From Klebsormidium nitens (taxonomy: Eukaryota; Plantae; Klebsormidiophyceae): DNA of 64,000 nucleotides. Below, in pieces: positions 12,295 to 64,000 of the stretch; the stretch's first letter is position 1; each line of letters opens with the position of its first letter. Location of the stretch: assembly GCA_000708835.1 (NCBI GenBank), contig DF237177.1, positions 72,563-136,562 on the forward strand, read 5' to 3'. The notes under the pieces are model-generated. The model was given only the letters and a program-made list of their open reading frames with translations. It did not search any database and was not told the origin of the DNA. The translations under genes were made by a program, and so were the position numbers.

Positions 12295-13611
12295 TGACTT
12301 GAGTAGCCAGCTTTTGACAATGGTTTGCAGATCACAAGTCCGCTAAATGAAAGCCTCAGGTTGAATGACATGAGCGACTGTATATTATGCAGAGGTGAAT
12401 CTTCTTGAGAGGCCACCCGACCTCGGATTCTGAAGCGCGGATTGATGGAAATCAGATCCCAACACCACATGGCGGCATCCGTGCAATTTGTAAGCAATCA
12501 TTGTCGACAACTATTGGATATAGAAGAAAGACGCCGCGCGCTTTGCCTCTTGGGGTTTCAACAATGCATGTGTGCTGCCGGGACAATCACCAGTTCAAAT
12601 CAGTTTTGGACATCTTGCAGACTTATCTGATTGTCAGGATTCTCTCGCTTCGACATGCAAACCCAAGCTTTGACTGGCAATTCACCTGCATATAACCGTG
12701 CTCACCGGTATATGCATCACACATGCATTCCTTATGAAACCAACGCTCCTTATGTGGTCGGCATTAAGCCATGCGGCCGATCATAAAAGCGACATATCGC
12801 GTCCCTTCCGTCAGCTCTTTGGGCTCATTATGTGGTCGGAAGCCATGCGCAGAGCAAGGCGATGCAATAGTTGAAACATTCTTAATTGAGTCATTCCTTG
12901 CAGCGGCCAGCACTCAGATGAGCCTCGGACTCGTGGAGAGTCATGCGGGCAGAATGACAATTTGCGCGCGCGTGAGCTTGCAGCAAAAAGGAAGGCCGGC
13001 CGCGCCTGGGCCGCGGGCGCATTGCGCCCGCTGCGCCGTTCATGATCTTTGCGCGCCGCGGGCCCGTTCGATCGCGTTCAAGTTCTCACACAGGTCTCGC
13101 AGCATCGACGGTCGACGGGACCTCGTCTGTTGCAACATCGATCGAGCAATTTGAACGGCTCAGAAAATTTTCAAACTTTGAATGGCGACGCTCCTCAAAT
13201 CCGGTAGGTGCCGTCCTGCTAAACAGAAATTGGTGACTGGCCAAGGGCCTACCAAATGAAGTTCGGTGTTAAATAAACGGTCACGATCGCTCCTGACCGA
13301 TCGGACGGTGCACGCAGGGTGATGAACGTGACGGATTCTGCCGGTGCCGGTAAATATTGCTGCATGACCCGCAGAGGACGCCACGTCAGCACCCCCCGAC
13401 AGTGGAATCCGAGCCTTTTCGATCATGGTCCGTCGAACGCTCGGGACTTAGGGCTAAGCGACTGGGCATCACAGCCAAGGTCGGGGCTCAGGCACTTAGA
13501 GAGAGGCCGCGGAGTCCAAAAGGCAAGTTCGAGGGCCCGGTAAAAGCGGACCGGGTAGCAGCAGGCAGGTGGAGGCGCACGGGGGCTTAGGGAGGAAGAG
13601 GCGTGATAACC

Positions 13612-16600
13612 ATGGAGTCTCAGGCTAGTCTCCAGCATTTCAGCAATGAGTTGAGCAATATAGATCCGGACACTGTACAGAGCATTGCGTCAGGTGCGGT
13701 TAGGGTTGACATTGTGAGTTGCCAGGAGGGCGTCGCTGTCAAGTGCTTCACATGCGCTCACCGCATTTGGGTCAAGAGCAAAAAGTCCTCCAGCCTCATG
13801 ACGCTTGCATGGCGCAAGAGCGACCGCGGCACGCTGATGGGCTACCTGGTCAGTGCTGATGTTCCGAGGGCCAAGCAGTGCAAGCAGGTTNNNNNNNNNN
13901 NNNNNNNNNNNNNNNNNNNNNNNNNNNNNNNNNNNNNNNNNNNNNNNNNNNNNNNNNNNNNNNNNNNNNNNNNNNNNNNNNNNNNNNNNNNNNNNNNNNN
14001 NNNNNNNNNNNNNNNNNNNNNNNNNNNNNNNNNNNNNNNNNNNNNNNNNNNNNNNNNNNNNNNNNNNNNNNNNNNNNNNNNNNNNNNNNNNNNNNNNNNN
14101 NNNNNNNNNNNNNNNNNNNNNNNNNNNNNNNNNNNNNNNNNNNNNNNNNNNNNNNNNNNNNNNNNNNNNNNNNNNNNNNNNNNNNNNNNNNNNNNNNNNN
14201 NNNNNNNNNNNNNNNNNNNNNNNNNNNNNNNNNNNNNNNNNNNNNNNNNNNNNNNNNNNNNNNNNNNNNNNNNNNNNNNNNNNNNNNNNNNNNNNNNNNN
14301 NNNNNNNNNNNNNNNNNNNNNNNNNNNNNNNNNNNNNNNNNNNNNNNNNNNNNNNNNNNNNNNNNNNNNNNNNNNNNNNNNNNNNNNNNNNNNNNNNNNN
14401 NNNNNNNNNNNNNNNNNNNNNNNNNNNNNNNNNNNNNNNNNNNNNNNNNNNNNNNNNNNNNNNNNNNNNNNNNNNNNNNNNNNNNNNNNNNNNNNNNNNN
14501 NNNNNNNNNNNNNNNNNNNNNNNNNNNNNNNNNNNNNNNNNNNNNNNNNNNNTGTTAAAGTTGCTCTACGACAATTCTCAATTGTGCGGCCACAAGATAT
14601 CTCAATTGTTTGAATCAAGAAACACTGACTCAATGGGCTCCATACTTGTCACACTGCCTCACAATGGCAGGGAGGTTCTTTTAGAAGACCTACTCCCGCC
14701 TTGTGTTCAAGGAGGCAGCGATGGGCATCAAGGAGCAGGCGGTGCGCTACCTCGAAATGATGGCGGCTCCCGAGGGGTCGGTTCGCGTTTTCCTGCCGAC
14801 AGGGTCGGCGTCCCCTCCGCTTAGTCTGTACATGTCGGCATGGGATCACAACGGAAACGGCCGGCCAAAGAAACTGGGAAAGCCGGACAAGACGCATGCT
14901 TTGCCGGAGACAGTCTGGTGGGACACGCGCGGCAAGCTCTGCTGTACGTGCGACCGGGGCCGACTGACGGAGGGACGCGCCGTGCGTGCACAAGCTGGCT
15001 TTGGCGGCCATCAGCGAAAGCTGGGCCTCAACAGCGGAGCTGCCCACCCACGAGTTGCTTGGCAAAGGGGCGAGGGTAGAGCGGGTTGGAGCAGACGCGA
15101 CGGGGAGCTATTTTGCGGTAGCGGACAACGTTCAGGGGCCGCCGGGCCCTCGAAGGCGCATGGTATTCCGCAGCAGCAAGGGGGTGTGGTACTGCAAAGG
15201 GAAGCGCGACGGGTGCCCATCTCTTGTCGATTGCTCGAGTGCGGCAAAGACGGCTCTGAGAAATGAGGGGGACCTTCCGATCGCCGACCAAGTGGTCATG
15301 AGCCTTTCGGAGCCGATATCCAGGGCTGCGCTGGGCTGGCTCAAAGCGTGGAGCCGAGAGTTGCCGACAATCGGACGGGGGGTGGTGCCCAGCGTGGGGG
15401 CACCCTCGCCCCCAACTCTGGTCAATGAAGAGCAATACCTCATCGAGCTGCTAGAGCAGCGGCCCCACGAGCGGGCAGCGTGCGCCGGCGACACGTGCTT
15501 TTGTCGTCAGCATGATCGACTCTTTGAAGAGGCCGCTGCACACATCTCGGACGGCGATCAGGGCCCGGAGAAGGAGCCGGTTGCGGGAGAGGCACCCCCT
15601 CGCAAACGGGCAAGGCGGAACAAGGCTTTCTGGGAGGCGCACAAGCAAAGCCCGCATCCGGCAACGAGACGAGGGTGGGACGCGCGGCCACCAGCAGAAG
15701 CGAGGGGGAAGGAGGCAATCCGGGGTTGGGTTGACGCGTGCACGAGCTGCTCGTTGGCTGCAATAGCGGTCGCGGGAGGCCGATGCAAGCACGGACTGAG
15801 AGGCCTCGAGGGTTCGCGCCCCCGTCATGCTTTTGAGCACGGAGGCGGTCCAGGTCTCAAAGCCCAAGCTAGCTCGCCCAAGCGATGCGCATGCTGTTCA
15901 TGACCCCCTAGTAACCTCGCTCAGAAGCCCCGTCCCCGTGAGCGAGCTTTGCAAGTGCCACTTTCGAGAGCTTTCAGAGAAAGGGCTGCTTAGCGCGCTC
16001 TGCCCATTGGACTCTCCCGCATGCGGCGGCTCGTGGGTCGAGATGTGGGTCCAGGCAGACGTGACGGCCTCCCAGTGGAGCCAGCAAGTGCGGGTGCGGT
16101 TATTCCATTGCCAGTGCCTCGACGAGGCGCACACGATCCACTTTGACGGGGAGCACCTGGGGTTGTACGCGTGGAACCGGCGGACCCTCTTTGTGCAACA
16201 GAGCCTACAGCTGCTCCTGCGGGGGATGCAGCACGGGCACAGCTTCAAGGCAGAGCTTGCGACCCATCAAACGGCCTTCCATTGGTTGCCGGACGCTGTT
16301 GTTTTGAGCGAGGAGACGTGGCGAAGGGCGAGCCTCGACTTCTTCAAGCTGGTTGGGCTGGGGCTCCGGGATTGCTGCTCGTTGTGCGGTCCCCATCCAA
16401 AGGTAAGCTACATGACTTACTCATGCAAAACACAAGAGGACACGAGAATCTTCTGTCTATTGTGTTTCTCCTGTCTATCATTTTGTGACCGTGAGAAACA
16501 TGCCTTTAGTGTACATTCTTCCATAATTAGTGTACATTTGCTGATATTCTGTGTACATCCAGTGACATTCCGTGTACATCGAACGATGTCCAGTGCAATG

Positions 16601-18772
16601 AATTTCAATCCCCTGATTTAATGGTCGATTGGCATAACCTTGGCTCGACATACCCGTTGACCTACCGTCACAAGTTGGGCTCTTTTGCCAGGTGCTCATT
16701 TGCGACGGCATTGTCGGCCTCGCCAGCGCGGATGGCGCGCAAAAGCCAGGCGGGCTTGGGAGCTCCTCGCTTGACGCGCGGCGCACATTCTGCCACCCTA
16801 GCCGTTTCTCCACGGGGGCGCTCCTCGAGAAGCGGCCCATCTCCGGCCGCGACTATTGCGGGTCCGGTCTTCAGGGGGGCGGGTTGAAGCGCAAGCTCTT
16901 GCTGCTACCTGAGTTGCGAGAAGCGCTCGCGCGCCTGTCCCAACATCGGCCCAAGGACGAGAGGCTTGGGAGGAGGCTGTCAAAGGTGGAGTATGAAGCG
17001 CTCTTGAACGGGCTCGGCTCACGAGGACCCCCAGATCGTGAAGCGTTTCGGGCCGGATGAGGCGGGGGGGCCGCTTCCAGAGGACGGCAGACGGCGCATG
17101 CTCGCCAAGCAGCGCACGATGGTACGAGACCAAAATCTGGCCGTCTTTGAGTTGCTGACGGGGATCCAGGCCGACTTTGAGAGGCGAGGCTTGAGCTCAG
17201 ACCTGTGGCAGCGCTGGGTGGGCGAGTGGACGGAGCTTCTGTACTCTCTCGGCGCGCACGACAGCGACGAGGCTCTCATCGGACCTGGCGCATTGCATGT
17301 AATCCGGCGGCTTTGCCTTGGGGGCGAGGCAACTCGCGAGGACCGACGGGACTTGGCAAAGGACGCACCAATCCTGCGACGCATCCTAGATTCGTGCGGA
17401 GGGCTCACATTCCCGGCCTTCTTCATGCGTGTGCTCTACCACCTCTACCTGCTCGTACTCTTGGCTCAGGGGGGGACGGGATTCGAGAGCGAAGGGCGGC
17501 GGGGCTGGGTGCACGAGGCAATCGATTCATTCAAGCGAGCGGTTGACCTTCTTACGGAAGCTCGAGCGCGTCCCTTGAGCATCGATGAAAGGCGACACTT
17601 GGACGAGGCGCGAGGGCTGGCGAACGAGCTGCTCCCAGGGGTCGAAAGGTTGGTGCCAAGCCTTCAACAGTGGGAGAGAATGAGCGGTCATGAGCGCTCG
17701 CTCTGAAGAGAGAGGCTGGGGCGCGACGAGGAGGGACACGAGTTGCACCCGTTGCCGGCGGGGCACGCTTTTCGAGCCGAGCAGGACGTCTTGGCGTGCT
17801 ATCCATTCCCTGGTTGGGAGGAGAAGCGGGGGTTGCCGTGGTACAGCAGCTTCGAGCATCCGGACGGCCGCAGTAAGAGTTCGGAAGAGAACAAGTGCGC
17901 AACGGGGAAGTTGATGACCGAGTGGGATGCTGAGAACGTTCCTGGGCTGGTGAAGGGAGCCGGAAAGCCCTCGGGATTGAAAAAGGGAAGCAAGAGCAAG
18001 CGGCCAAAGAGGACTAGGGGGGGTTACGTTTTTGCGTGCCCGCATCGGGTCATCTACGGCTTTCACATCATGCTTCGAGGAGAGAGTCCAAGGGACGCCT
18101 TTGTCGTGCTCTACACTCGGCTAAGGCGGGAGGACTTGCCAGAGGTTCTGGTGCATGACAACAGTTGCGCCTTGCGCAACTACTGCTTCCGCAGGGAACC
18201 GGCGCATTTTGCCAAGGTTCGGTTTGTCGTCGACAGGTGCGTCACTTTCACGCCATAATTGCGTGGTTGGACAATCTGTATGAAGACTTGGTTGTAGTGG
18301 GCGTTGTTGCCAAGCATTGAGTAGGGATTGCAGTGTGCATCAACTGGGATTGCGTGTACATTGAGATTCATTTTGCAATTGGGCCGGTGCTGAGAGCTTT
18401 GATTCTCGATTCAAAACGTGTACATTGGGTATTATTCTAAAAATGTGAACTGATGTACATCTTCATGTTGACAGGTTCCACTTTTCAAAGGCCGGGTCGG
18501 AGGTACACAAGTGCGGCCCCTCAAATTGCCCGGACAGCTATCCGTCGCTCCACTGGGTAAACACCAGTGCAGTGGAGTCGGTGAACTCCTTTTTGAAGGG
18601 GTTCAGGAGTCTAGGATGGTACTCGGGGCTCGAGAGTTTCATGGTGATCCTGCCTCTGCTCTTGGGAGGCTACAATAGCGCTTTGAGGCGGGTCGACGAT
18701 GCCAAGCTTAGCATTGCAATTGCGGTAGCCGTGTGGACGGTGGGGGTGCGCGCTCAATTGTTGCAAGGATAA
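13612..18772 (+). pseudogene. Kyakuja-Dileera-Zisupton (KDZ) family transposase with N-terminal Cys motifs and SWIM-like fingers, disrupted
   Basis: SWIM-like CTCD..CVHK and WYC..C..C motifs. The core reads ACPHRVIYGFHIMLRGESPRD, VHDNSC, VDR|FH..HKC, NTSAVESVNSFL. Introns at 16403-16691 and 18237-18474. Apparent frameshifts near 14980, 15830 and 17030, an in-frame TGA at 17704, and an N gap at 13891-14551. Confidence 0.85.
16509..16581 (+). repeat. 21-bp-period intronic minisatellite with a GTGTACAT core
   Basis: GTGTACAT starts at 16509, 16530, 16551 and 16572. Confidence 0.7.
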
Positions 18773-18989
18773 TCGGGCGCTTTAGTGTAAGTTGAGCCCT
18801 ATTCAGTGGCGGTACACACATTGATACATCATTTCGAGTAGTGTATCACGCTCCTAAACGCTGAAAGGCTGGCTCTTGAAAGATGCCAGATCATCTGCAA
18901 CGCTTACGACGGCCGGATTAAGGCACGATGCGTTGCCCTTGCGCATAAAGCATATCGCAAAAGAAGCCTGAAAAGAAGCCTGATACAAT

Positions 18990-19107
18990 TGATACGCCTG
19001 ATACGCATATTCACAGCAAGTGGTCCTGTATGTAATGCTTCTCTTTTTTGTTCTTCTTTGAAAAACTTTTGTATACTTTATGTGTGTATCTTGTATCAGG
19101 CGTATCA
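18990..19107. repeat. Inverted repeat with TGATACGCCTGATAC arms around an AT-rich spacer, 3' of the D5 gene
   Basis: Arm 18990-19004 is the exact reverse complement of 19093-19107. An extra TGATAC unit lies at 18981. Confidence 0.85.
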
Positions 19108-19298: not shown

Positions 19299-20077
19299 CT
19301 ATGGGAGGTTCCCTTGCGCATCCGTCCGCCCTAGCTCCTCCTTGGTCTTCAAACGAATCCCAAAGAAACCTCTAAGCCGCTTCTTACCGTCGATCGTTCG
19401 AATCAAGATGGCTTTTCCCCGCTCTTGTGGGAATCCTTTCAATCGCATCGCTCTTGTCAAACCGTCCCCCGCCAATGCCACATCATGCCCACTTGAGTAC
19501 AGAAAGTTTGTGAAGGCCTCGACAAACTCGATCCTGGTGACGCTTGCCGCCTCTCCCTCGGCCGTTTCCTTAGTAGTGCAAGCCTCGTCTATGAAAAATT
19601 GAAGCTTGTCGTTCTCTGAAGCGTACTCCCTTACAGCCGCGGAGAACTCCTCGGGGACTGGCGAGAGAACCTTTGAGGCGGGAGCTAGTGCCCTCTTTGC
19701 GTAGTACATGATCGCCCCCTGAACGCAAAAGTCTAGAGTGTCCGCTGCTCCTTCATCCGATTCGAAATATGGCTTCAGGGTTACATCGATGGGCCTGTGC
19801 ATCTTGTTCGTTGCATCGAGCTCGTGGGGATTCTTGAACGTGTAGTTGAACATGAGCAACACAAGCCGTCGAATGAGAGCGGTGTCATCGCTTGGAAAGT
19901 CCGGCCTGTAGTTCGTGAACAAACAAAGCTTGTATTGTGGCACGTAACTCTGCGGTTTGCAGAACAGCTCACGCGCATCAAGCTCGCCACCACCGCTGGC
20001 CTCTTTCACAAAAGATGCGTGAAGCACCTCTCTTCCTTCCGATTCGTCATTCGTGACAAACGTCTTTGTTCGAATCT
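19299..20077 (-). pseudogene. D5-like SF3 helicase, C-terminal part, cut by an N gap
   Basis: Motifs FVTNDESEG (Walker B), IKEASGG-like VKEASGGGEL, KLCLFTNYRP, TALIRRLVLLMF, and a C-terminal wHTH-like region ending RGFFGIRLK. Confidence 0.85.
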
Positions 20078-20269
20078 NNNNNNNNNNNNNNNNNNNNACC
20101 ATGCCGCTAGGGAGCCAAAACTATGAGTGCCGGAATTGGCCCTACCTGATCCTGCGAACGCCCAGATGCCGGATCATATGCAACGCTTACGACGGCCGGA
20201 TTACGGCACGATGCGTTGCCCCTTGCGCATGAAGCATATTGCAAAAAGCGAAACGAATCTTGATACAAT

Positions 20270-20385
20270 TGATACGCCTGATACGCATATTCACAGCAAG
20301 TGGTCATGTATGTAATGCTTCTTTCTTTTTCTTCTTTGAAAAACTTTTGTATACTTTATGTATGTATCTTGTATCAGGCGTATCA
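20270..20385. repeat. Second copy of the TGATACGCCTGATAC inverted repeat
   Basis: Arms at 20270-20284 and 20371-20385. The region 20164-21360 is a near-identical paralogue of 18881-20077. Confidence 0.85.
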
Positions 20386-20576
20386 GCTCCACCCGACGCA
20401 CATTGCAGACATCATTTGCTTCTCTGCATCATTGAGAGAATGATAAATACTTCGCCGCCCAGAATTTGGCTCATTTGGCATTCCAAAAGAACAGTTGGCA
20501 ACAAATTCCGAGATTCCAAGACTGATACACACCCGTTCAAAACAACCAAATTGTTGTATCCGCTGTATCAGTCTGC

Positions 20577-21868
20577 CTATGGGAGGTTCCCTTGCGCATC
20601 CGTCCGCCCTAGCCCCTCCTCGGTCTTCAAACGAATCCCAAAGAAACCTCTAAGCCGCTTCTTACTGTCGATCGTTCGAATCAAGATGGCTTTTCCCCGC
20701 TCTTGTGGGAACCCCTTCAATCGCTTCGCTCTTGTCAAACCGTCCCCCGCCAATGCCACATCATGCCCACTTGAGTACAGAAAGTTTGTGAAGGCCTCGA
20801 CAAACTCGATTCTGGTGACGCTTGCCGCCTCTCCCTCGGCCGTTTCCTTAATAGTGCAAGCCTCGTCTATGAAAACTTGAAGCTTGTCGTTCCGACTCCG
20901 AAGCGTACTCCCTTACAGCCGCGCTAAACTCCTCGGGGACTGGCGAGAGAACCTTTGAGGCGGGAGCTAGTGCCCTCTTCGCGTAGTACATGATCGCCCC
21001 CTGAACGCAAAAGTCTAAAGTGTCCGCTGCTCCTTCATCCGATTCGAAATATGGCTTCAAGGTTACATCGATGGGCCTGTGCATCTTGTTTGTTGCATCG
21101 AGCTCGTGGGGATTCTTGAACGTGTAGTTGAACATGAGCAACACAAGCCTTCGAATGAGAGCGGTGTCATTGCTTGGAAAGTCCGGCATGTAGTTCGTGA
21201 ACAAACAAAGCTTGTATTGTGGCACGTAACGAGTCTGCGGTTTGCAGAACAACATCACGCGCATCAAGCTCGCCACCACCGCTGGCCTCTTTCACAAAAG
21301 ATGCGTGAAGCACCTCTCTTCCTTCCGATTCGTCATTCGTGACAAATCTCTTTGTTCGAATCTGCATGAGATGGCTTGAGGCCGCAGAGGCATTAGCCTT
21401 GAACGTGGGTTTGATGAAGATGGCCTTGTTCCCCGCACAATTGTAACGTCCAAAGGCCTTTCGGAGTGCTTGCTTCAACACTCCTTTTCCATTCGAGCCG
21501 CTATGACCATTCATGATGACAAACAACTCTTCCAACGTCTCTCCAATAAGACAATAGCCAAGGAACATCTGGAGCCACTCGATTGTCTCCAGTGGAAGAA
21601 CATCCATCAGGAATGTTCGGAATCTGGCAGTGGGGCGTGTGGAAGCACCCGGCACGTATCTAGTTGTCTGATTGATGCACAAGTTCTGAGGATGATGGGG
21701 GAGCAAAGCACCGGTTCGAAGATCGATCAACCCGTTTGGAGCATTTGCAACTGTGGGATCTTGATCAAATCGGTCGAGCAGACCATTTACGTGCAGCTCT
21801 CTAACTGCAGAGTGCAAGCACTTACGTACGTCAGCAACATCTTGGACGTTGATCCTTCCAAAACTTGG
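20577..21868 (-). pseudogene. D5-like SF3 helicase, C-terminal half of a second copy, frameshifted and interrupted at 21868
   Basis: Motifs ANAPNGLIDLRTG (D5_N), GHSGSNGKG (Walker A variant) and VTNDESE. The frame changes near 21245 and 20890. Confidence 0.85.
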
Positions 21869-52331: not shown

Positions 52332-55300
52332 ATGGCAGCCCCTACTGAGCAGTACCAGGCTTCGGATCTAGCTCACATTGGACACGGTTTGTACTATATA
52401 GGCGAGGACAGCGTCCGACCTTCCGAGATAAGCCGGATTTCGGGCAGGTGCATCACCTGCAGGCAACAGATTTGGAAGGGCACAGGCAGTATAGACGGGG
52501 TGTTGAGGCTGAGCTTCCGCAAGAGTGCAATGAAGGGCTACCTAGTGAGCTGCGGTGTGCCCAAAAACAAACAGAGGAAGCAGATCATTTGCCTCGCGTG
52601 CGTGGGCAAGCTGATGGGGGAGCTGAGGGTCGGCGCTGATGCAAGCAGCTTGAGTTTGTGCGAGCGCGGGCATGACCAGCAGGATGGGGTGCTGTTCGAG
52701 AGGCTGCCCTCAGGCAGCTGGAAGCAGCAGCTGGCATTGACGGACGAGTTGCTGGAGGGGGCTGTGGCTGCGAACGAGAGCTCCGTCTCAAGAAAGAAGC
52801 CCAGAAAAGCTGCAGCAAATACGCTGAGGGGATTGCAAGCTGGAAAAAGACCGCGTGCAGAGCCGGTGAGTGCGCATGCCGTGCTTATTTTCTTCTTAGG
52901 TTCTATGTGCAAAACGACCAGATNNNNNNNNNNNNNNNNNNNNNNNNNNNNNNNNNNNNNNNNNNNNNNNNNNNNNNNNNNNNNNNNNNNNNNNNNNNNN
53001 NNNNNNNNNNNNNNNNNNNNNNNNNNNNNNNNNNNNNNNNNNNNNNNNNNNNNNNNNNNNNNNNNNNNNNNNNNNNNNNNNNNNNNNNNNNNNNNNNNNN
53101 NNNNNNNNNNNNNNNNNNNNNNNNNNNNNNNNNNNNNNNNNNNNNNNNNNNNNNNNNNNNNNNNNNNNNNNNNNNNNNNNNNNNNNNNNNNNNNNNNNNN
53201 NNNNNNNNNNNNNNNNNNNNNNNNNNNNNNNNNNNNNNNNNNNNNNNNNNNNNNNNNNNNNNNNNNNNNNNNNNNNNNNNNNNNNNNNNNNNNNNNNNNN
53301 NNNNNNNNNNNNNNNNNNNNNNNNNNNNNNNNNNNNNNNNNNNNNNNNNNNNNNNNNNNNNNNNNNNNNNNNNNNNNNNNNNNNNNNNNNNNNNNNNNNN
53401 NNNNNNNNNNNNNNNNNNNNNNNNNNNNNNNNNNNNNNNNNNNNNNNNNNNNNNNNNNNNNNNNNNNNNNNNNNNNNNNNNNNNNNNNNNNNNNNNNNNN
53501 NNNNNNNNNNNNNNNNNNNNNNNNNNNNNNNNNNNNNNNNNNNNNNNNNNNNNNNNNNNNNNNNNNNNNNNNNNNNNNNNNNNNNNNNNNNNNNNNNNNN
53601 NNNNNNNNNNNNNNCCCAGAAAAGCTGCAGCAAATACGCTGAGGGGATTGCAAGCTGGAAAAAGACCGCGTGCAGAGCCGGTGAGTGCGCATGCCGTGCT
53701 TATTTTCTTCTTAGGTTCTATGTGCAAAACGACCAGATGCCGGAAGCCAACCACAGAATATGCTGCCGCTGCAGCAAAAGGAGGGAGGACATGCGAGCTA
53801 TCTCTGATGCAGTCGATGCAGAGCTCTTCGGCAGTGCAGAGTTCGCTATGCACATCCTTGAATTGATCGAGATGTTCAGGTCTATGCCTCCAGCTTTGAG
53901 GGTCCAGATCAGAAGGATATTCGATAGCAGTGACGAGACATCATAGCACCGCCCGCATGCCGCGTGCTGCCTTAAGAGTTTCCGCAAAACCCTGAACAGA
54001 TAAACATCCGGCATCACACTTGCAGGTGCTCGAAGAGGGAGAAGAGAGCGCAGACCATCGCGGCGACGTTGCGACGCAGGCCGCGCGCTTCCTGAAGCGC
54101 ATCCCGGATGGCACTTGCGTCGTGGTGTTGCCGGTGGGGCAAGGCCTCCGAGGGGGCTTCCTGGGGCGGCTCTATCTCACCGCATGGGATCACAATCGCG
54201 CGAAGCCGAAGCCGCTGGGGAAACCTTGCAAAGGGAAGGGGTTGCTGGAGGAAGCATGTGGGACCAGCAGGGGCGCATCAATTGCACGTGCGATCGTAAG
54301 AGGCTGGCCCTAGATGCGCCGTGTGTCCACAAGATGGTGCTCGCGTCCCTCTGCGCGGGCTCCATCGCCACCAGCGTGCTACCGACCGCAAAGGAGATGA
54401 GCAGGGAGGCGCTCACGGTCGAGCAGCTGGGAGCCGACTCCAGCGGGGCCTTCTACGCCGTCAGAAACAGCCCGAAGGGGGTGAGCCCCGAGCACAGGAT
54501 GCTACACCGGTCCACGGCGGGGTTGTGGTATTGCGAGGGAAAGCGGAATGGATGCCCGGCTCAGTACGACTGCTCCCATATCGCGGCTGCCAAGGTCGCG
54601 CTGACGCATGGGCAGGTGCAGCGCGCGGAGGGCTTGCTTCTGGACTCTGTTGCCTTGAGCAGGGCGACTCAGTGGATCGAGCACTGGGAGGGCAGACTGC
54701 CGCTGCTCGGTGAGGCCAGCGGTGGCCGGGGAGCTGGGATGTTTGAAGAGGAGCGACGTCCGCCTGCGGCGATTGCAACAGGAGAGCATGGGGGCGTGGA
54801 GTGTGCAGGGGGTGAGTGTTGGTGCCGAAAGCACCGGCTGATCTTTGGGGAGGCGCAGCCCCCCTCGGACGCCATGGACTCGGAAGGACAGGTGGAACTC
54901 GGAGCGAGCACCCCTCAGAGGCAGGTGCGTAGGGGAGCCAGGTATTGGGCAGAGCACGCCAGCGAGATGCCGAGGGGCGCACCTCGCAGGGCCGAAGAGC
55001 CGCCGGGGGATGCGCGGGGCAAGGAGGCCGTACATGGCTGGGTGGCTGCATGCCATAGCTGCAGCCTGACTGAGGTGCAGCAGCAGGGGTGCTCCCATGC
55101 GGAGGCGGAGCGCGTACGGGCGCCCATCATGCTATTGGGGACGGAGGCCGCGCAGATCACCCAACCCAAGCTGAGCAAGCTGGGCGACGCCCTCGATCAT
55201 CATGATCCATTGATCGGCTGCCTCAAGGCAGGGCCGGTCCGAGTGAGCAAGCTCTGGGACTGTCACTTCCGAGAGCTGAGCGAGCTGGGCATGCTGAAGG

Positions 55301-58260
55301 CGCCGTGCCCGCTTCAGCCTCCCCCCTGCGGCGGCGAGTGGGTACTGCACAAGAAGCCGGCCCTCATCTCAGCCTCCACCTGGTCGCAGCAGGTGGAGAC
55401 GAAGATATACTGCTGCCAGTGCCTTCATACGGCGCACACGGTGCACTTCTGCGGAGAGCATCTGGGCCTCTACAGCTGGACTCAGGGGACGATCCTGGTG
55501 CAGGAGAGTTTGCAGCTCATCCTGAAGGGAATGCAGCGCTCGGGCACGGCCTTCTCCGCCGAGCTCGGGAGGGATCAGGAGGCTTTCGCCCGATCCCCAG
55601 GGTCTATAGTCTTATCCGACGAGAGCTGGAGGCGGGCGAGCCTGGACTTCTTCAAGCTGGTCGGGCGGGAGATCTCAGAGTGCTGTACTATCTGTGGGCC
55701 CTTTCCAGAGGTGAGCATATCTTGCAGCGAGGTCTCCTTTGTGGGAAGCTCAGCCACGTCGATTGGAGAAAGGTCCGAGGAAGCGCGGTGCCTCCAACGA
55801 GGTCCCGGAGCGAGTTCATATTCAAATCACCGCTTATCTCATCGGCAGACACGTTTCGGGTTGAGGAAGTGGAGTGCCACGCTGTCATGTCCATGCTGTG
55901 TTATCAGTCGAAGGTTTGAAACACTCGAGTATTCCCGCGCTGTCTTCTGGACGCCGGCGTCATCCAATCTTAGGGTGAACACTCTGATCCTTTGCCAGCT
56001 AGTTTCCTTAAGCTCTTGCTCGTCTCATCCAGGTGCTTCTGGTTGACGGGATAGTGGGCGTGGCGAACTCGGATGGTGGGAAACGTCCTGGAGGCTTGGG
56101 CAGCTCCTCTCTGGATTGCAGACGGACGTTCGTCCACCCTAGCCGGCAAGCGGGGGGCGAGCTGCTCGAGAGGCAGCCCGTCTCCGGGCGGGACTATTGC
56201 AGCGCCGGGTTGGAGGGGGCTGGAATGAAACGAAGGCTGGTCCTGCAGCCGGAGCTACGAGAGCTCATCGCGCGCCTCTCTCAGCATCGCCCCACGTCAG
56301 AGAAGCTGGGGCAACGGCTTTGCGAGGTGGAGTACACGGAGCTGAAAGCCGGGCTGGGGCGGAAGGACGTGCAGGTGGTCCGGCGGTTCATTCCGGGCGA
56401 GGGAGAGCAGCAGCCGGTGGCCGCGGAGACCAGGAGGCGACTGCTCGCGCAGCAGTGCTCACGCAATGGTGCGTGAGAAGAACCGCGCGATGCTGCGGCT
56501 CCTGGAGGGCATTGAGGCGGACCTGCAGGCGCGCGGCATGAGCCCGCGGGTCTGAGAGTACTGGCCCTGAGAGTGGGGCGAGCTCCTTTACGATCTCGGG
56601 GCTCACGACGCCGATTGCGGAATCATCGGGCACTCGGGAGGCCTCGCAGTCATCCGCCGGTTGCTGCTTGGGGACGAGGCCACCCCGGAGAACCGCAGGC
56701 TGCTGGGGGCGCACAGCCCAATCCTCCGTCGTGTCTTGGATGCCCACGGCGGGACCCAGTTCCCCCGGTTCTTCCTGCCGGCTCTGCATAAGCTCTACGA
56801 GCTGACCTTGCTTGCGCGAGGGGGGACAGGTTTCGAGGATGCGGAGCGCGACGGCTGGGTGGTGGCGGCCCTCCGCCCGCTCGGGCATGCCGTCGAGTTG
56901 CAGCGGGTTGCTGCAGATAGGCCGTTGAACGAGCAAGAGGCGGCGTTACTAACGTATGCGGCCGCGACCGCTCGCTCTTGGCTGCACGGCGTCGAGACGC
57001 TCGAGCCGTCCCCAGCGCAGTGGACGGACATGAGCCAGCGGGAGCGGGACCTTCTCTGGCAGCGGCTCGGCCTCGACGAGGAGGGGGCCAGGTTGCATCC
57101 GCTTCCGCCGGGACACAGTTTCCGAGCCGAGCAGGATGCGCTGACGCACTACGCGTTGCCGCCGGGGTGACAGCAGAAGCGCGGGCTCCCGAGGTATTCC
57201 ACCTTCGAGCACCCCGACGGCAGGAGCAAGACGTCGGAGGAGACCAAGTGCAACTCGGGGAAGACGGAGACCGAGTGGGATGCAGCGAATACCCCAGGGC
57301 TCACGCGAGGTGGCGGCAAGGCGAGCAAGCCCGGAGGTAAACGCCCGAACAAGAGCAGGGGGGCAGTCGTGTTTTGCTGCACCCATCGCGTGATCTACGG
57401 CTTCCACGTGATGCTGCGGGGGGAGAGCCCGAGGGACGTCTTCGCGGTCCTCTACACGCGGCTGAACCGGGGGCACCTCCCGAAGTTTCTGGTCTATGAC
57501 AACGCCTGCGCGCTGCGAAACTACTCCATGCGCCGGGAGCCCGCCTTCTTTGCCGAGGTCACCTTCACGGTCGACCGGTGAGTACTTGCGACCCATTGCA
57601 ATCGTGCCGGTATGGATGCAAGGCGATGGGGGAAGGGCCGTTAGGGCGATGCTATTAGAATGATAGCAAGTGGAAGAAAGAGAGGGCGTCAAACCAAAAA
57701 ACCAAAACACCAATTATTTTAGAGGTTGTGTATATAGTATAGGCTGTATTAGATTCATAGAAATCTGATAGAGATCTCTAAAAATTTTGGTGTTTTTGGT
57801 TTTTGGTTTTCGGCCTTTCTCCTCTTGCTTTCTACTCACCCCGGCTGTTGCATGCCGCCAATGTTCTGCCAGCAGATCAATGTACCGATTCGTCCATTAT
57901 CCTCTAGAGGCTTGCCCTGAGCTTGATCGTACATCATCCAACGCCCCCTGCAAATGTCGGTGCAGGTTCCATTACGCAAAAGCTGGTGCGGAAGTCCACA
58001 AGTGCGGGCCCAGCAACGCGACGGAGTTCTATGACGAGCTTCGGTGGGTCAACACGAGCGCGGTCGAGAGCGTCAACAGCTTCTTGAAGCGGTTTAGGAC
58101 GCTGGGGTGGTACTCGGGGCTGGAGAGCTTCATGGTATTCCTCCCGATCCTTCTGAGCGGCTACAACGTTGACATGAAGAGGGTGGATGATGCCAAGCTG
58201 GCGGTAGCTATGCAGGCGAGGCAGTGGAGCGATGCCATCAGGGCAATGTTTTTAGAATGA
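52332..58260 (+). pseudogene. KDZ/Zisupton-family transposase copy 2, disrupted
   Basis: SWIM motifs CTCD..CVHK and WYC..C..CSH. The core reads CTHRVIYGFHVMLRGESPRD, VYDNAC, VDR|FHY..HKC, NTSAVESVNSFL. Introns 55711-56032 and 57578-57965 sit at the same positions as in copy 1. Frameshifts near 54255 and 56465; in-frame TGA at 56553, 56568 and 57168. Confidence 0.87.
57691..57809. repeat. Intronic copy of the AAACC-armed inverted repeat
   Basis: AAACCAAAAAACCAAAACACCA .. TGGTGTTTTTGGTTTTTGGTTT, near-identical to 58288-58403. Confidence 0.85.
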
Positions 58261-58287: not shown

Positions 58288-58403
58288 AAACCAAAAAACC
58301 AAAACACCATTTATTTTAGAGGTTGTGAATAGTATAGGCTTCACTATATTCTATAAATCTGATAGAGATCTCTAAAAAATTTGGTGTTTTTGGTTTTTGG
58401 TTT
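58288..58403. repeat. Inverted repeat with AAACC-iterated arms, inner TTTTAGAG/CTCTAAAA arms and an AT-rich spacer, abutting the D5 stop codon
   Basis: Arms at 58288-58309 and 58382-58403. The D5 stop codon is at 58404-58406. Confidence 0.85.
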
Positions 58404-61344
58404 TCAGCCTCCCCCCTTTTGCCATTCACGCACCTCAACCTTGGCCGTTGCATGCCGCTTCTCTAACTCCTCTTGCCTGAGCAATCTGACTCCAATGTAC
58501 GGCCTTCCGGAGCCGTATCCGTTAAGCTTAGGCACTTGTGGATGCTTACGGTCGGTGGTGATGTTGTGTGCCTTCAGGGCCTTCGTAAACGCCTGTGAAG
58601 TCATGCGCTGGTCCTCGCATTCCCTCGCCTTGTAGGCCGTGGACAACTCGCTCATCACAACCACTTCGTTGGGTCCAAGCAAGCACTCTTGCTCCAGAAA
58701 CGTAGACAACGTATCATTTTCCTTCAGATATTCATTGCATGCTTCCGTAAAGACTCTGGGTCTAGGCCAGAGCACCTTTTGAATCTTGTCGTTGGCCGTC
58801 CGTAGCTTGTACCATTCATGTGCGCCCTCAAAGACGACCCTAGTAACGTCTTCGATACCCTCCTTCGACTCGAGATACATCTTCAGACCAACATCTGCCC
58901 TTCGATGGGTTGCAATCTCGGGATTGAATTCGGAATCCTCTACGTACTGATTTGGGTATACTTCCAGGACAATCCTACGCAGAAGGCCTTGATTGACCTC
59001 CTCCACTGGAATACGGGGTTTGTTGTTCGTCAGCAGAGCCAGCTTGTGAGTTGGAATGAAGTTCTTCATCTTCTCGAATAGCTCTCGGGCGGAGATCGAG
59101 CCTCCTCCCGTCTGCTCTTTGATCGTGGCGGCATTTATGATCTTGCCATCATCCAATTCGTCGGCGATGCCCATACGGACGCCTTGCAATTGGGCTAGAT
59201 GACTCGTTGCAGCGCTCGCAGTATCGTCTTTGGTCTTCATGAAGATGTGCTTGGAGCAGATGATCCCGTAATCCCCCCAAGCAGCTAGTATTGCCTGCTT
59301 CAATGCCCCCTTCCCGTTCCCTCCTTCCCCCCACCAAAATACTACCAGCTCCTCGTCCGTATATCCGGACAGGCAGTATCCCAACCACAGGATTTTCCAC
59401 CGTACGACCTCCTCGTCGCCATTTGCAACATCCAGCAGAAACTCCTTGAATCTAGACCGTGTCCCGATGGGTCTTGGATGATATTCACCACCCGCCATCA
59501 GGCTGCAAAGGTGGGAGGGGTGCGGTTTCATGAGCTTGCCCGTGGGGATGTACCCAACGCCATTTTGGAAGTTTACCAGCAAAGGATCCTTGTTCATGTG
59601 AGACGACAGGTCTGCGACGTACAAGTCCGTCACGACGTACTGAAGGCATTTCCTGACGACGGTCGGATCCTGCACATTGAAAATAATCGCTGGGAGATCC
59701 ACTTTCACTTGACGCTCTGACTCATCTCTGATTTGCTTCCACTTGGGATCGCTCAGATATCTCTGCACCGCTGCTTTATCGATGGTCTTTAGAGCTGGAT
59801 CCAATTCGCTCAGCTTGTCAAGGAAAATTCTCAGAAAGAGGCCAAGGCGTTCTTGTTCATACCAATTCAGAAGCGCGCCCATCTGAGCAGCAAACACACC
59901 GAGGACTTTGTTGCACGTATCCTCGATCCACCCACGCCCGTCCCAAAAGAAAAAGATCTTCTTCTCGCCCGTGTTCAAGATGCGGCCTTCAGTCTGGTAG
60001 ATGAGGCTGAAGATTTTTGCAAGCCCTTCAAAAGGCTGCCCCCCCCCAGTGCGAGCAACCTCCGCAACAAAATTCAAGAATGCACTCCTGCCTTATTCAA
60101 GGTACTTCTTGAATATGTCGATCTGTTCTTTGGAAGACACTGGGTCGATCGTTGCGTCCTTCAGTGCAGCATCGAGTGTCAGCTGCCCGAGCTTTCTTAC
60201 GGGCTCATGCGAACATTGATCACCATGGCAGCGATAGTACACGTTGCGCCCACGCTTCAAAATGTTAAAATTGTTACTTCCGGAATGCTCACGTCCGAAG
60301 AAACACGTCCTGGGCCCTTGAGTCCGAAAGCAGTAGTAGGTCCCATGAATGCCATGCGGCAAGGCGCTCGCATACACGCTCGTCGAATCATTTGCCTTCT
60401 CTCTCAGCATTGTCTTGAGCTCACGCACGAGCAATTCGAGGTGCGCGGGAACCGAAGCCTCTCCGACCCACTCGGGGGCTGCATCTCCCGACGCCAAGGA
60501 GGAACTCGGAGCGCCCGCATCGGCGCTTGCAAAAGATGGGGGCGTCGAGAGGCCATCGCTCAGCTCTGCAGCGACCGGCGAGCTAGCACCAGAAGACCCT
60601 GCATTGATAACAGCTACAAGCCATGCGGGCATTGGTTTGGGTATCCCATCGCCCTCGGGGGCCCAGGTGTAAGTCTTCTTGTCTCGTCTCTTTCCCGTAT
60701 AACAAGACGGCGGAGCAAAGCAAAGGCCACCCGTGCCACGACCGTCCAGTCCATAGGCGGGCCACATTGTCCACCACCAGCCCCGCAAAATTGTTCGTCC
60801 TATTCAGACCGATCGTTTCACTCCGACAGAAGTAATAATGGAACCCCCCTGACCCGGTCACCGCCTTCAGAGTTGCAGGCTCTCCGTGCGCGGCCACTAG
60901 CTCGCCCCAAAGCTCCGTACCGGCTTGTTTCTCAGCGCCCGACCTTTTGACTCTGGTGCTTGCAACGTCGATATCGATGCAGTATAGGTCACTCGGCTCC
61001 GTCAAGATTGCGAGGCCGTTTGCCTCGGACCATTGGAGGCAATCGTGGATGTGCGCCTTCCAATACTCGATTGATTGAAACGACTTCCAACCCCCGCTTG
61101 GAAATGCGGTCCTCTTCTTGCCGGCAGCGTCTGTGAGGATGCGCACGGGGACTGCATACACTCCGAGCCTACCTAGGCGCAAGATTTCCTCGTTGATGTC
61201 TATGATGTCGGATGCCGCAGGCCTGACGTCTTGGGCGCCATGGGTTGCGGCATCCTCGTCCCCCGGGGTCGGAGCCTCAGGGGTCTCGATTGCAGGGGCG
61301 TCGAGGGTGGGTTCGAGAGCGCAAGAGTTGTTGTTGGCATCCAT
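58404..61344 (-). pseudogene. Full-length Prim-Pol/D5 SF3 primase-helicase, copy 2, with one frameshift (~60760) and one in-frame TAA (60093)
   Basis: Motifs NGLAIL, CIDIDV, TGSGGFHYYF, LDGRGTGG, VNFQNG, WGEGGNGKG, GIADELD, IKEQTGG, LLTNNKP and GLLRRI. Confidence 0.9.
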
Positions 61345-61426: not shown

Positions 61427-61756
61427 ATGGCCGACCATACCATCGACAATTTAAGCTACACCGACCAGCTGCGCACGTGCCCCTGCGTAACTTGCAAAAC
61501 AATGAGGCGCTACGTTGAGAAAAACCCCGGCAGGCACAGCGAACATGTCAAAGATTACTACATTCGGAACCGACACGACATCCTGTTGACCAAGGCTTTT
61601 GAAAGGTACAAAAGCGGCATAAGAACTCAACAAAGGACCCTCGACAAGTTGCTTGCGGCTGGTTACCCTGTGACGGGTTCTGGAATCCCTGAAAGTCCTG
61701 AGGAAGGGGACGACATGATGAGGGTCGTAACAGACAGGTCGATCGAGGCCACGTAA
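61427..61756 (+). CDS. Conserved small CxCxxC protein, copy 2
   Basis: Homologous to 25190-25525 and in the same position between D5 and the recombinase. Confidence 0.75.
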   Translation: MADHTIDNLSYTDQLRTCPCVTCKTMRRYVEKNPGRHSEHVKDYYIRNRHDILLTKAFERYKSGIRTQQRTLDKLLAAGYPVTGSGIPESPEEGDDMMRVVTDRSIEAT

Positions 61757-61784
61757 GTCCGCTAAGTCGTATCTTCTGCTCTGA

Positions 61785-62816
61785 TTACTGCCAAGCAATG
61801 GGAGTCCCGTCGGGCTTGTACTTTTTCTCGTAATGGGTCTGCTGAACGGCCACCAAATGCAAGCAAGATGACGCCTTTTCTGCCCGATCTCTCAAGGATG
61901 GTGCATCTTTGTACTCGTTCGATATCAGTATCTTTCGCATCAGGCCCGAACCGACATTTGCATCCGGCCAAATGGCCGCCATAAATTTCGAATAGTAATT
62001 TCGACCCATGGGAATCTCTGGCTTTTTCATACAGCTGAGCAGGTACCTCCTGGGGAAAACTGTCAGACTCTCTACGACCACATTGTTCATCCTGGTCGGA
62101 AATGTATACGTCTTTTCTCCGTATGTGCGGTCAGTTTTAAAGTATCTGAGATGGAATGTAAACTGTCCTTTTGCCGTTTCCATGATGTGATTTCCTTGCA
62201 TCAGCTTTCGTATCGCTGATGAGCGGTGGTCTCTCATGAAAATTATTGGGGCATCTGAGTAGTCATTCCGCAATGTTGGTAGGTACGCGTACAAACACAA
62301 GATAAGATGGCGGATGAGGTCGATGCGATCCTCCATCGTAAGATCTGCAGCTTGCTTAGGGAGTATGACTCCCCGATTTACCCGACGCTGTAGCTCCTCG
62401 CGCCTCTTCGTGATCTCCTCGAGAGTCTTCCAGTTTGCCCCCTCATGCTCTGTCATTTGCTGCAGGGGCGGCCTTACGGCGTCCCTCGCCTTTTTGATTT
62501 CTTCATGTCTGTCGAAGTAAACCTTCCAGAGAGCCATATCCCGGAAGTGATCCTTTGCAATTATCATTAGAGTGAATATGTAACCATGCTGGGCTGGCAG
62601 CTTATGGAAATACGCACTCTTTAGAAACTCGATAAGTTCGGTGCAATCCGTCTTGACCCACCGCAGATCCTTCAGCTCCTCAGACCCTTGGAAGAAGTGT
62701 GCGTGTAACCGCAGGGTCTGTGCAACGTATTGGCGCAGGGTGTTCTCTTTTCTGAGGTTATTATGCGGCCTTGACAATTTCCTCTGGCGTTGCCTCAACC
62801 TCGATGTGCTTGACAC
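61785..62816 (-). CDS. Tyrosine recombinase/integrase, copy 2, intact 343 aa
   Basis: Motifs PTLRND, YFKT, GLMRKILIS, CLHL and THY. Aligns along its length with 25566-26618. Confidence 0.85.
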   Translation of the reverse strand: MSSTSRLRQRQRKLSRPHNNLRKENTLRQYVAQTLRLHAHFFQGSEELKDLRWVKTDCTELIEFLKSAYFHKLPAQHGYIFTLMIIAKDHFRDMALWKVYFDRHEEIKKARDAVRPPLQQMTEHEGANWKTLEEITKRREELQRRVNRGVILPKQAADLTMEDRIDLIRHLILCLYAYLPTLRNDYSDAPIIFMRDHRSSAIRKLMQGNHIMETAKGQFTFHLRYFKTDRTYGEKTYTFPTRMNNVVVESLTVFPRRYLLSCMKKPEIPMGRNYYSKFMAAIWPDANVGSGLMRKILISNEYKDAPSLRDRAEKASSCLHLVAVQQTHYEKKYKPDGTPIAWQ

Positions 62817-63010
62817 TAGCCATCAATCACTACTATGCACATAGCTACGAAAATTTTGACCGTGACTCTGCCCCGCCTCGGCCACATACATGACTGGGGC
62901 TTGTCATAATCTTTTCACAGGCGAGTCGAGATTCCACTCATAAATGCAATAACCCAACGATTGTTTTGATGCACAATGGGAACTTATGGCAAACAGCCCT
63001 AAAAGGAGCC

Positions 63011-63032: not shown

Positions 63033-63389
63033 ATGGAGCTACATAGGTGAATGGATCATGTCAAAATCTCGGACTGTGGGTCGGAACAGTTGTTCAACTA
63101 AGTGTTCACAATCCAGGTGGCTCAACAAACCGGTTATTTCATTGTGACGCCGCCAGAATCCTTGGATATCGACCCATCCGAGCCATTGTGCAAGTCTTCG
63201 GTTATATACTCTGTTCCAAACTCAAGCTTCGAGTCAGACATCGAATCGTAATTGGACTACTCTCTGTGTTTTGCCGTCCGAATCAATTTAGTTGGCCATG
63301 TCCAAAAATCTCACATAGTTCGAGGGTAAGTGGACTAGATGGCATATACGTGCAAAGGCGAGGATAGTGCAAGCCAAGCGACCCGAGCT

Positions 63390-63977
63390 TCAGACTTCGA
63401 CATCGCCTGCATTATCAAAGTGCATTCTGGCCAGGTCGTCGACGTCGCGCTGAGTGCCAATAATCAGCACTGAGAAACTCCCATCAACCGAGACCTCGAC
63501 CGGAACCTCCAGCACGTCCTTTAAGATTATGCACCGTCCATAGCCCAAAACGTCGATTCCCGCCATCCATGCTTGCGCATCCTCGTTGAGATACCAGAAA
63601 TATTCAGGCAACTCAATCTGACCCCTGCAATCGTGGGTGGTGACCTTGAAGCGATGCAGGTTGTCACCCCTGGTCGGAGCTTCAACAAAGCAGTGTTTCG
63701 ACCGAGGGATTGCAAACGACTTTTCTTCATCGGGATGCAAGTTGTTCTCGAAATTCGAGTCTTCAAGGCGCATCTCCAGGTCCTTCTCTGACTGTGACTG
63801 CAGTACAAAACCCAAGGCGTAAGAGCGAGGTTCACAAGTTAGGCGTTGTGTGATGTCACCCATAATGGTATATCTATGACAAGTCTGAGATTTTAAAAGA
63901 CTCTTAAAATCCACGCGATCATGCCAGACGCCTCGAGGAGCCCGGGCCCAAACTCCAAATATGCTGTCGATTGCCAA
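63390..63977 (-). CDS. Orphan hypothetical protein upstream of recombinase copy 2
   Basis: 195-aa ATG ORF with normal composition and no recognised domain. Confidence 0.5.
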   Translation of the reverse strand: MAIDSIFGVWARAPRGVWHDRVDFKSLLKSQTCHRYTIMGDITQRLTCEPRSYALGFVLQSQSEKDLEMRLEDSNFENNLHPDEEKSFAIPRSKHCFVEAPTRGDNLHRFKVTTHDCRGQIELPEYFWYLNEDAQAWMAGIDVLGYGRCIILKDVLEVPVEVSVDGSFSVLIIGTQRDVDDLARMHFDNAGDVEV

Positions 63978-64000
63978 TGGGCTTTGGAATCGATGAGGTA

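Follow-up and report, generated by a model that had tools for sequence, protein, structure and literature searches.

When a transposase gene and a virus-type replication module lie tail to tail twice in one stretch of algal DNA, do they form a single element, or has one been inserted behind the other? The question is raised by 64,000 nucleotides (nt) of Klebsormidium nitens DNA (the window: GCA_000708835.1, contig DF237177.1, positions 72,563 to 136,562 of the forward strand). This is eukaryotic DNA with ten N gaps. It contains two loci, locus 1 at 13.25-27.4 kb and locus 2 at 51.9-64 kb, 39 kb apart; the region around both is rich in repeats and gaps. The order of parts is the same at each: a KDZ-type (Kyakuja-Dileera-Zisupton) transposase gene (+), an inverted repeat, a gene encoding a primase-polymerase fused to a D5-type superfamily 3 (SF3) helicase (PrimPol-D5, hereafter D5; -), a small open reading frame (ORF; +) and a tyrosine recombinase gene (-). 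The composite family is real, multi-copy and decayed. Judged from sequence, the loci are probably, if by no means certainly, two copies from a single family of large composite DNA transposons that join KDZ to the virus-type module and have spread as whole units.

A preliminary description had reported two diverged loci with a common gene layout. Six-frame self-comparison of the window finds them at these places and pairs them gene by gene. The shared proteins are homologous yet far from identical, as had also been stated: identity between the loci is 36-56%. For KDZ it is 56% over the core and 37-68% for individual pieces in the same comparison. The pieces of D5 are 32-46% identical, the recombinases 44%, and the small ORFs 36% over 73 aa (E 1e-15). 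At the DNA level similarity is confined to exons (65-70%); introns, flanks and orphan ORFs do not align. Both KDZ introns are at the same codons with GT..AG ends, which bears out the reported conservation of intron positions; one lies after the last CxxC of the cysteine cluster, the other inside the VDR|FH motif. The orphan had been counted among the shared parts, but the two orphans are not homologous. The named relatives of D5, KDZ and the recombinase are all Klebsormidium nitens proteins, and the locus 2 D5 is a 100% match to one of them.

Both copies are decayed. The KDZ genes carry frameshifts and in-frame TGA codons (one in locus 1, three in locus 2), and the D5 and recombinase genes of locus 2 are also damaged (Table 1). 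Only the locus 1 recombinase gene and the two small ORFs are still open. No RNA source is listed for locus 2, which has no bearing on whether it is expressed. In run X5, 510 of about 640 differences from window positions 51730-64000 are C>T or G>A, as methylation-driven decay would give. CpG depletion within the elements is slight (0.9-1.0) and was set aside as evidence. The locus 1 D5 gene contains repeats of 90-95% identity (18.9-23.9 kb), all of which adjoin N gaps. Real tandem genes were rejected for this reason, and the repeats are probably assembly duplicates. Near-identical repeats (86-100%) flank N gaps at 18881-23910, 27338-27879, 42016-43332 and 52800-53738, and these too are probably assembly duplicates. 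For the last of them, in locus 2, one contig joins 52799 to 53615 across the gap, so that repeat is an assembly duplicate. The locus 2 junction of KDZ, inverted repeat and D5 is present with 0 differences in contigs matching 57227-61058 and 56931-59364, from runs X1 and X2; these runs are one sample, perhaps from the same source as the window. In run X6, which has a different organism label and comes from a different study, KDZ, repeat and D5 are found in separate pieces at about 83-92%, and no listed piece bridges KDZ to D5.

The transposase appears to be a divergent member of the KDZ family, which is defined by its transposase domain and cysteine clusters; the fit to both is weak. The KDZ domain (PF18758) matches 20 of 21 relatives at E up to 0.1, the best at 4.3e-5, all below the gathering score. 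The CxC4 domain (PF18717) matches the KDZ gene at E 0.0012, also below the Pfam cut-off. A full-length relative of 1,377 aa (P0153) aligns along both KDZ genes and has introns at the same positions. The motifs DG, DNxC, FH and ESxN, which we take to be those of the KDZ catalytic DDE triad, are kept in both loci. The structure model has a pLDDT of 53.9 and no Foldseek match; VIA structural matches over the KDZ core are to RNase H-like domains and integrases (best Z 7.0, rmsd 3.3, 91 aligned), a result within chance range.

D5 has Prim-Pol and D5_N domains above the Pfam cut-offs, and a Walker A motif is present. The recombinase residues R189, K235, R302, H328 and Y337 are at least 90% conserved among 102 aligned sequences; the first histidine is not conserved. 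Its profile matches integrase structure 3nkh (E 1.4e-5), and its model has a Cre-like fold (pLDDT 95.7) with a structural match to Cre (E 6e-5). The catalytic set and the modelled Cre/lambda-Int fold are those expected of a tyrosine recombinase. The recombinase family comprises 2,128 clusters, and the closest viral models are those of giant viruses and a virophage. One environmental relative finds two viral loci at 24%; in one of these, L002, no D5-like ORF adjoins by eye. L002 is an 18-kb viral contig, virophage-like by eye, in which the recombinase relative is the first third of an 884-aa ORF (8799-11453). For the small ORFs, orphans and recombinases Pfam gave nothing beyond a weak match to Phage_int_SAM_1 (E 0.03).

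An inverted repeat had been described as common to both loci. One is present at each, but the two differ in sequence and are iteron arrays rather than a simple repeat, and locus 2 has a second copy in a KDZ intron. Three iterons on each side oppose one another around a core of 68-75% A+T (46% window-wide), directly or closely behind the D5 gene. The iteron score is reached by 0 or 1 of 100 shuffles at each array. Of 120 tiles of 470 nt, the four that hold these arrays are the only ones to score; among 296 tiles of 200 nt six score, two of them elsewhere. The origin of SaPI satellites is described with the same iteron layout behind a primase-helicase gene (PMC9371898), with at least two opposed iterons on each side of an AT-rich core, and phage C4.1 has it behind its homologous gene. 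By its layout and by these analogies the inverted repeat is likely to be a replication origin. The repeat unit differs between the loci, and so does the helicase tail (32%). A terminal repeat and a recombinase core site were also considered for the mid inverted repeat, and both were rejected because of its spacing and iteron layout. The copy in the second KDZ intron of locus 2 is missing from one X6 contig, where 57593 is joined to 57882; local over-replication from the origin is a guess at its source.

The D5 side of the loci is not new in itself. An inverted repeat, a primase-helicase and a tyrosine recombinase are described as the end module of polinton-like viruses (PLVs), and the repeat has been proposed as an origin there (PMC11296320). 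The earlier statement that primase-SF3 helicase and tyrosine recombinase pairs are typical of PLVs and virophages agrees with that paper, in which the order beside the inverted repeat is the same.

The link between KDZ and D5 recurs in other copies. Linkage was read indirectly, from contig sizes: contigs of identical exact size in nt were taken as the same, which gives neither order nor distance. Relatives were found in 14 recombinase, 11 D5 and 61 KDZ clusters, and 28 clusters were expanded. About 27 KDZ cluster members are not among the sequences compared, so that "no KDZ" calls and KDZ pair counts are to be read as lower bounds. Twelve of 19 contigs with a locus-2-type D5, not counting the window's own scaffold, match a KDZ-bearing contig in exact size, where jittered sizes give 0.03 on average. 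For contigs of at least 10 kb the count is 11 of 17. From the KDZ side, 12 of 18 contigs of at least 10 kb with a KDZ at least 80% like that of locus 2 pair with a D5 or recombinase contig. A 6,316-nt contig carries a 970-aa D5 and a 418-aa KDZ piece, and KDZ and D5 are consecutive genes on a named scaffold (KFL_008790030 and KFL_008790040).

KDZ and D5 have also diverged together. Their identities correlate across 13 paired loci (77 of 78 pairs; rho 0.74, permutation p 0.0012), with contig 61438, which has a 66-aa D5 piece, left out. Comparison of the trees, suggested earlier as a check, shows congruence once contigs 61438 and 20786 are left out: KDZ and D5 both place locus 1 outside, then contigs 75568 and 29080, then the locus-2 family. 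Support is 98-100 for KDZ; for D5 it is 98 for the locus-2 family and only 80/58 for the middle group. KDZ tracks D5 better than the recombinase does. We infer that KDZ and D5 were already together when loci 1 and 2 parted and have stayed so, and that the locus-2 family was amplified in a burst. Three further searches yielded no confirmed locus: for DNA of further copies with the recombinase alignment in metagenome, viral and prokaryote contigs; with the KDZ alignment in metagenome and viral contigs; and with D5, the other primase-helicase described below and the locus 2 orphan in viral contigs.

The recombinase keeps less constant company. Close recombinases also occur with a second type of primase-helicase, a PrimPol fused to a DUF5906-type SF3 helicase, which is 35% identical to the D5 type. 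Among long contigs, KDZ is found on 0 of 6 with the DUF5906-type enzyme vs 11 of 17 with locus-2-type D5 (Fisher p 0.014). In a recombinase tree made with a fast method, DUF5906-linked and KDZ-linked recombinases are intermixed. Two contigs combine a locus-2-type D5 with a recombinase only 26-29% like that of either locus. Modules thus exchange partners, because the recombinase also occurs with the DUF5906-type primase-helicase and D5 with a very different recombinase. Module exchange has been described for PLVs (PMC11296320; bioRxiv 2026.10.13.758929). On these comparisons the recombinase and what lies beyond it form the exchangeable part, and KDZ, origin and helicase the stable core. The DUF5906-type fusion marks a sister replicon (P0037, P0039, P0014 and P0041, on contigs of 80580, 24578, 6222 and 68235 nt) with which no KDZ was retrieved.

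Candidate ends lie upstream of KDZ. Similarity between the upstream regions of the loci is clearest from 13250 on (local alignment score 275; best of 200 shuffles 257). The consensus of the arm found there has only four matches, at 13252, 51813, 51912 and 51940, and none between the KDZ stop and the D5 stop. The last two make up a perfect palindrome upstream of the locus 2 KDZ, in which the arm cores are 8 bp apart. Right-type arms carry a conserved short tail, which left arms are without. Fourteen contigs of run X1 cover position 51788 with a summed depth of 503, as against 9-13 for window-identical contigs; depth is no copy number. Contigs cease matching behind 51839 (five in X1, four in X5) and behind 51937 (four in X2), and one contig repeats 51852-51937 in tandem. 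In the simplest reading, one arm direction would mark left ends, the other with its tail right ends, and the palindrome would be the place where a right end meets a left end, as in circles or tandem copies. Alternatively, units of about 95 bp may form a subterminal array in this region, at the left end. Going by the arms, locus 1 might reach to 51838, a length of 38.6 kb. A right end close behind the locus 1 orphan was rejected, as no arm match was found there at up to 6 mismatches. Self-comparison of the window shows no long terminal inverted repeats (hundreds of bases), such as mark PLVs and virophages, around either locus; the right end of locus 2 is beyond the window.

The DNA on either side of locus 1 contains other genes and repeats. 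A spliced host gene for sucrose-phosphate phosphatase (PF05116; about 8900-12400, +) ends less than 1 kb from the candidate left end. At 27510-28487, short inverted repeats (23/23 at 27510/28351, with more copies) surround a 14-bp tandem array (28058-28272), possibly a small non-autonomous element. An unrelated second replicase gene, apparently spliced, is found at 31000-38030 (-). It consists of a PrimPol-like ORF (36227-38032; human PrimPol E 4e-4) upstream of a UL9-type origin-binding helicase (PF02399 E 4e-15, with PHROG matches), and could be an element of its own or else cargo of a 38.6-kb locus 1. Units of 112-122 bp, each containing a 13-bp inverted repeat with its halves about 30 bp apart, form arrays at 28519-28990 (-), 29544-30750 (+) and 40690-41005 (+). 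Two of the arrays face each other and the third is beyond the PrimPol/UL9 gene; in appearance they resemble the subterminal binding-site arrays of some other element. At about 49300-50250 (-), spliced exons with a P-loop motif can be seen by eye. The numbering of named genes leaves room for only five gene models between the locus 1 KDZ (…170) and the locus 2 D5 (…230).

Table 1. Features of the two loci and their candidate ends (window coordinates)
Feature	Position	Strand	Remarks
Candidate left end of locus 1, terminal arm	13250..13274	+	homologous to right arm of the palindrome before locus 2 KDZ
Divergent KDZ-type DDE transposase gene, locus 1	13612..18772	+	introns 16403-16691, 18237-18474; N gap 13891-14552; frameshifts, one TGA; CxC4 E 0.0012
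Candidate replication origin, locus 1	18981..19107	.	3 TGATAC-type iterons each side, opposed; 88-bp core, 68% A+T; 191 bp behind D5 stop
PrimPol-D5 (SF3) primase-helicase gene, locus 1	19299..25081	-	Prim-Pol E 3e-13, D5_N E 2e-11; spread by probable assembly duplicates at N gaps
Probable assembly duplicate of locus 1 origin	~20260-20390		
Small CxCxxC ORF, locus 1	25190..25525	+	111 aa; closest look-alikes are unnamed clusters, one viral
Open tyrosine recombinase gene, locus 1	25566..26618	-	350 aa; R189 K235 R302 H328 Y337 conserved
Orphan ORF, locus 1	26786..27436	-	216 aa; no family; not homologous to locus 2 orphan
Inverted copy (23/23) of locus 1 left arm (51810-51832), plus short conserved tail	51810..51838	.	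end of much-repeated sequence; candidate right end of locus-1-type element
Perfect palindrome, 21-bp arms, 6-bp spacer	51912..51959	.	upstream of locus 2 KDZ; candidate head-to-tail junction, right end to left end
Divergent KDZ-type transposase gene, locus 2	52332..58260	+	introns 55711-56032, 57578-57965; frameshifts, three TGA; gap 52924-53614 is an assembly artefact
Copy (82%) of KDZ-end/origin/D5-end junction	57637..57858	.	in second KDZ intron, locus 2; ~220 bp
Candidate replication origin, locus 2	58288..58403	.	3 ACCAA-type iterons each side; 75% A+T core; directly behind D5 stop, 28 bp behind KDZ stop
PrimPol-D5 primase-helicase gene, locus 2	58404..61344	-	one frameshift, one stop
Small CxCxxC ORF, locus 2	61427..61756	+	109 aa; CxCxxC
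Tyrosine recombinase gene, locus 2	61785..62823	-	frameshifted close to start
Small ORF (orphan), locus 2	63390..63863	-	also found next to the recombinase of another copy (named gene model, 71% over 128 aa); look-alikes are unnamed viral protein clusters

How might such an element work? The transposase would act on the 21-23-bp arms to release and insert the element. The ends of the released element would be joined into a circle, for which the palindrome at 51912-51959 is the expected junction. The primase-helicase would load on its own iterons, melt the AT-rich core and amplify the circle, the polymerase activity being supplied by the host or by its own PrimPol domain. Multimers of the circle would be resolved by the recombinase, which may also integrate circles in tandem where ends already exist. 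Self-replication is suggested by this anatomy. The element is likely to have arisen when a KDZ transposon captured the replication-integration end module of a PLV or virophage, much as piggyBac joined a herpesvirus in Teratorn. It is a more tentative proposal that there is a self-replicating class of KDZ elements. This would combine circle excision and iteron-origin amplification by a captured viral primase-helicase with recombinase action at a lox-like junction, tandem stacking and cargo of tens of kb (locus 1 at 13250-51838, 38.6 kb, with the PrimPol/UL9 gene), as part of a wider KDZ habit of owning a replicase.

The preliminary description had inferred either one composite element or a hyperparasite. 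The first is supported, in that the KDZ-D5 link recurs on at least 12 other contigs and the two proteins co-diverge; it must be amended in that the D5-recombinase side was already known and the module is not fixed. Several observations weigh against a unit spread by its transposase. The KDZ assignment is below the Pfam cut-off (best E 4e-5). No direct repeat is present in the 8 bases that adjoin the two identical arms on the outside (13252 and 51832); this pairing of ends is a candidate one, and a second element abuts. None of the copies seen in the window and contigs compared is complete, with two ends and a target duplication. An iteron array lies behind the homologous gene in only two of four phages checked: C4.1 has the same layout, phi105 has it weakly, and the other two have none. 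Six of 17 long contigs with a locus-2-type D5 had no KDZ retrieved. More distant KDZ classes pair in 3/20, 0/11 and 0/14 contigs of at least 10 kb, counts which are no measure of absence because the search with the locus 2 D5 missed even the locus 1 D5, but which lend no support either. Many KDZ copies may truly stand alone. Within the young family (10 loci) KDZ and D5 identities are uncorrelated (rho -0.15, p 0.71), so the correlation signal comes from three levels only. Recombinases 78-92% like that of locus 2 are found on 5 of 8 contigs carrying the DUF5906-type primase-helicase, and KDZ was retrieved on 0 of 8. The recombinase side may therefore move without KDZ.

The last point leads to the strongest of the other explanations. 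An autonomous origin-D5-recombinase element, polinton-like and either capsid-less or intact, could insert site-specifically behind the KDZ stop, subfamily by subfamily, with the inverted repeat as its end. Such a hyperparasite is less likely than a composite element, and we consider it improbable overall. In PLVs the inverted repeat beside the primase-helicase has indeed been proposed as element end and recombination site (PMC11296320). Here, however, 48-88 bp lie between multi-iteron arms, which is an origin layout and not a recombinase core site. The sole lox-like palindrome is upstream of KDZ, which therefore lies inside the unit. Spacing between the KDZ stop and the origin is not constant, at 208 bp in locus 1 and 28 bp in locus 2. 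A survey of 8,300 elements found integrase and recombinase together in 12, all through nested retrotransposons (PMC12220804). A nested origin is also consistent with the DUF5906-linked recombinases without retrieved KDZ, and with the 6 of 18 long contigs with locus-2-type KDZ for which neither D5 nor recombinase was retrieved. To yield congruent trees, though, the choice of target must have tracked KDZ divergence across 56% identity.

A still less probable explanation keeps the single unit but gives mobility to the recombinase only. The arms would then be recombinase core sites, excision and integration would be Crypton- or PLV-like, and KDZ would be a long-kept passenger or helper. This accords with the perfect 21-6-21 palindrome, with the tail beyond right-type arms that left arms do not have, and with the lack of a visible target duplication. 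Relatives for which no KDZ was retrieved are present in multiple copies. In small eukaryotic DNA viruses, primase-type replicases are reported to go with tyrosine recombinases, and protein-primed polymerases with DDE integrases (bioRxiv 2026.10.13.758929). Against this explanation, KDZ has kept all its catalytic motifs and its introns over a deep divergence. KDZ adjoins the arms and tracks D5 more closely than does the recombinase. Zisupton and Dileera elements have terminal repeats and 8-bp duplications (PMC12730594), and the arm cores here are spaced by the same number of bases.

It is very unlikely that the loci are remnants of full endogenous PLVs or virophages with KDZ as integrase, in which intact copies would have capsid genes further right. 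Every non-KDZ gene has viral look-alikes, locus 2 continues past the window end with multi-contig cover, and viral core genes are reported in the genus Klebsormidium (PMC5294986). Against this, no capsid or packaging ATPase was matched in 52 ORFs (Pfam) or 14 ORFs (PHROGs), a weak argument given that these libraries miss many such capsids and that the window end cuts locus 2; what lies to the right of the locus 1 recombinase is an orphan, together with repeat arrays and a further replicase gene. The marks of Polintons/Mavericks, protein-primed PolB and a retroviral-type integrase, had no Pfam match in the 52 ORFs. One old segmental duplication or chance nesting, raised in the preliminary description and suggested by the closeness of the two loci (39 kb) and by the many repeats and gaps around them, can be dismissed, provided that the contig-size matches hold, because at least 12 other contigs pair KDZ with D5 and the trees and identities form a nested series of three levels, while flanks, introns and orphans do not align.

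Parts of this combination have bacterial parallels. In Tn3-family transposons with a tyrosine resolvase, such as Tn4430, the DDE transposase inserts and the tyrosine recombinase resolves within one element; unlike the present element, these have no replicase or origin of their own. SaPI/P4-like satellites share the fused primase-SF3 helicase, opposed iterons around an AT-rich core behind its gene, and a tyrosine recombinase (PMC9371898). They are bacterial, helper-phage dependent and site-specific and have no DDE transposase, so that the comparison is one of working principle only. PLVs resemble the loci in the order of inverted repeat, primase-helicase and recombinase and in partner swapping, and the recombinase is closest, by family and by fold, to proteins of giant viruses and virophages. 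They differ in that the repeat of the present loci is internal: beyond it lie a KDZ gene with introns and candidate ends. The window yielded no gene for a capsid, a packaging ATPase or a protease.

KDZ elements with cargo have been described from fungi, with 7-8-bp duplications (PMC12730594). The likeness lies in the CxC4-like cysteine cluster, the KDZ domain matches, the D..D..H..E order, candidate short terminal arms upstream, and the carriage of extra genes. The described cargo is a TET/JBP dioxygenase and not a primase-helicase with origin and recombinase; here Pfam matches are below cut-off and no target duplication was seen. Within the family, terminal inverted repeats are a mark of Zisupton and Dileera, and CA..TG ends of Kyakuja. 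Teratorn (piggyBac and herpesvirus; PMC10175614) is likewise a fusion of a DDE transposon with viral replication genes, and its congruent trees show that the two have long travelled as a unit. It differs in transposase superfamily and virus realm and keeps a whole 180-kb virus, whereas the present elements are 12-39 kb, have a second mobilising enzyme and show no capsid. The Plavaka giant repeats of Amoebidium are large, flanked by DDE transposase and encode tyrosine recombinases; they are EnSpm-like, not KDZ, and the parts of that account drawn on here mention no primase-helicase or origin (PMC11244446). A KDZ transposase joined to primase-helicase and recombinase was not found in searches of open full-text literature; nor does such an element appear in the portions drawn on of PMC10120064, PMC10288648, PMC6431247, PMC12344493 and PMC5294986. 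The parts are known, and so is the module of origin, primase-helicase and recombinase. Its join to a KDZ transposase has not been found described, and is Teratorn-like in concept.

Several parts of the loci lend themselves to testing: the two candidate origins, in which iterons and helicase tail vary together, the recombinase gene that is still open, and the site at which recombination may take place. The reported pairing rule of small eukaryotic DNA viruses is broken by an element in which DDE transposase, primase-helicase and recombinase are stably combined. If the composite reading is true, Teratorn would be joined by a second route to the fusion of transposon and virus replicon, this one in a streptophyte alga close to land plants. 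The element would also offer an answer to the question of how a cut-and-paste element raises its copy number.

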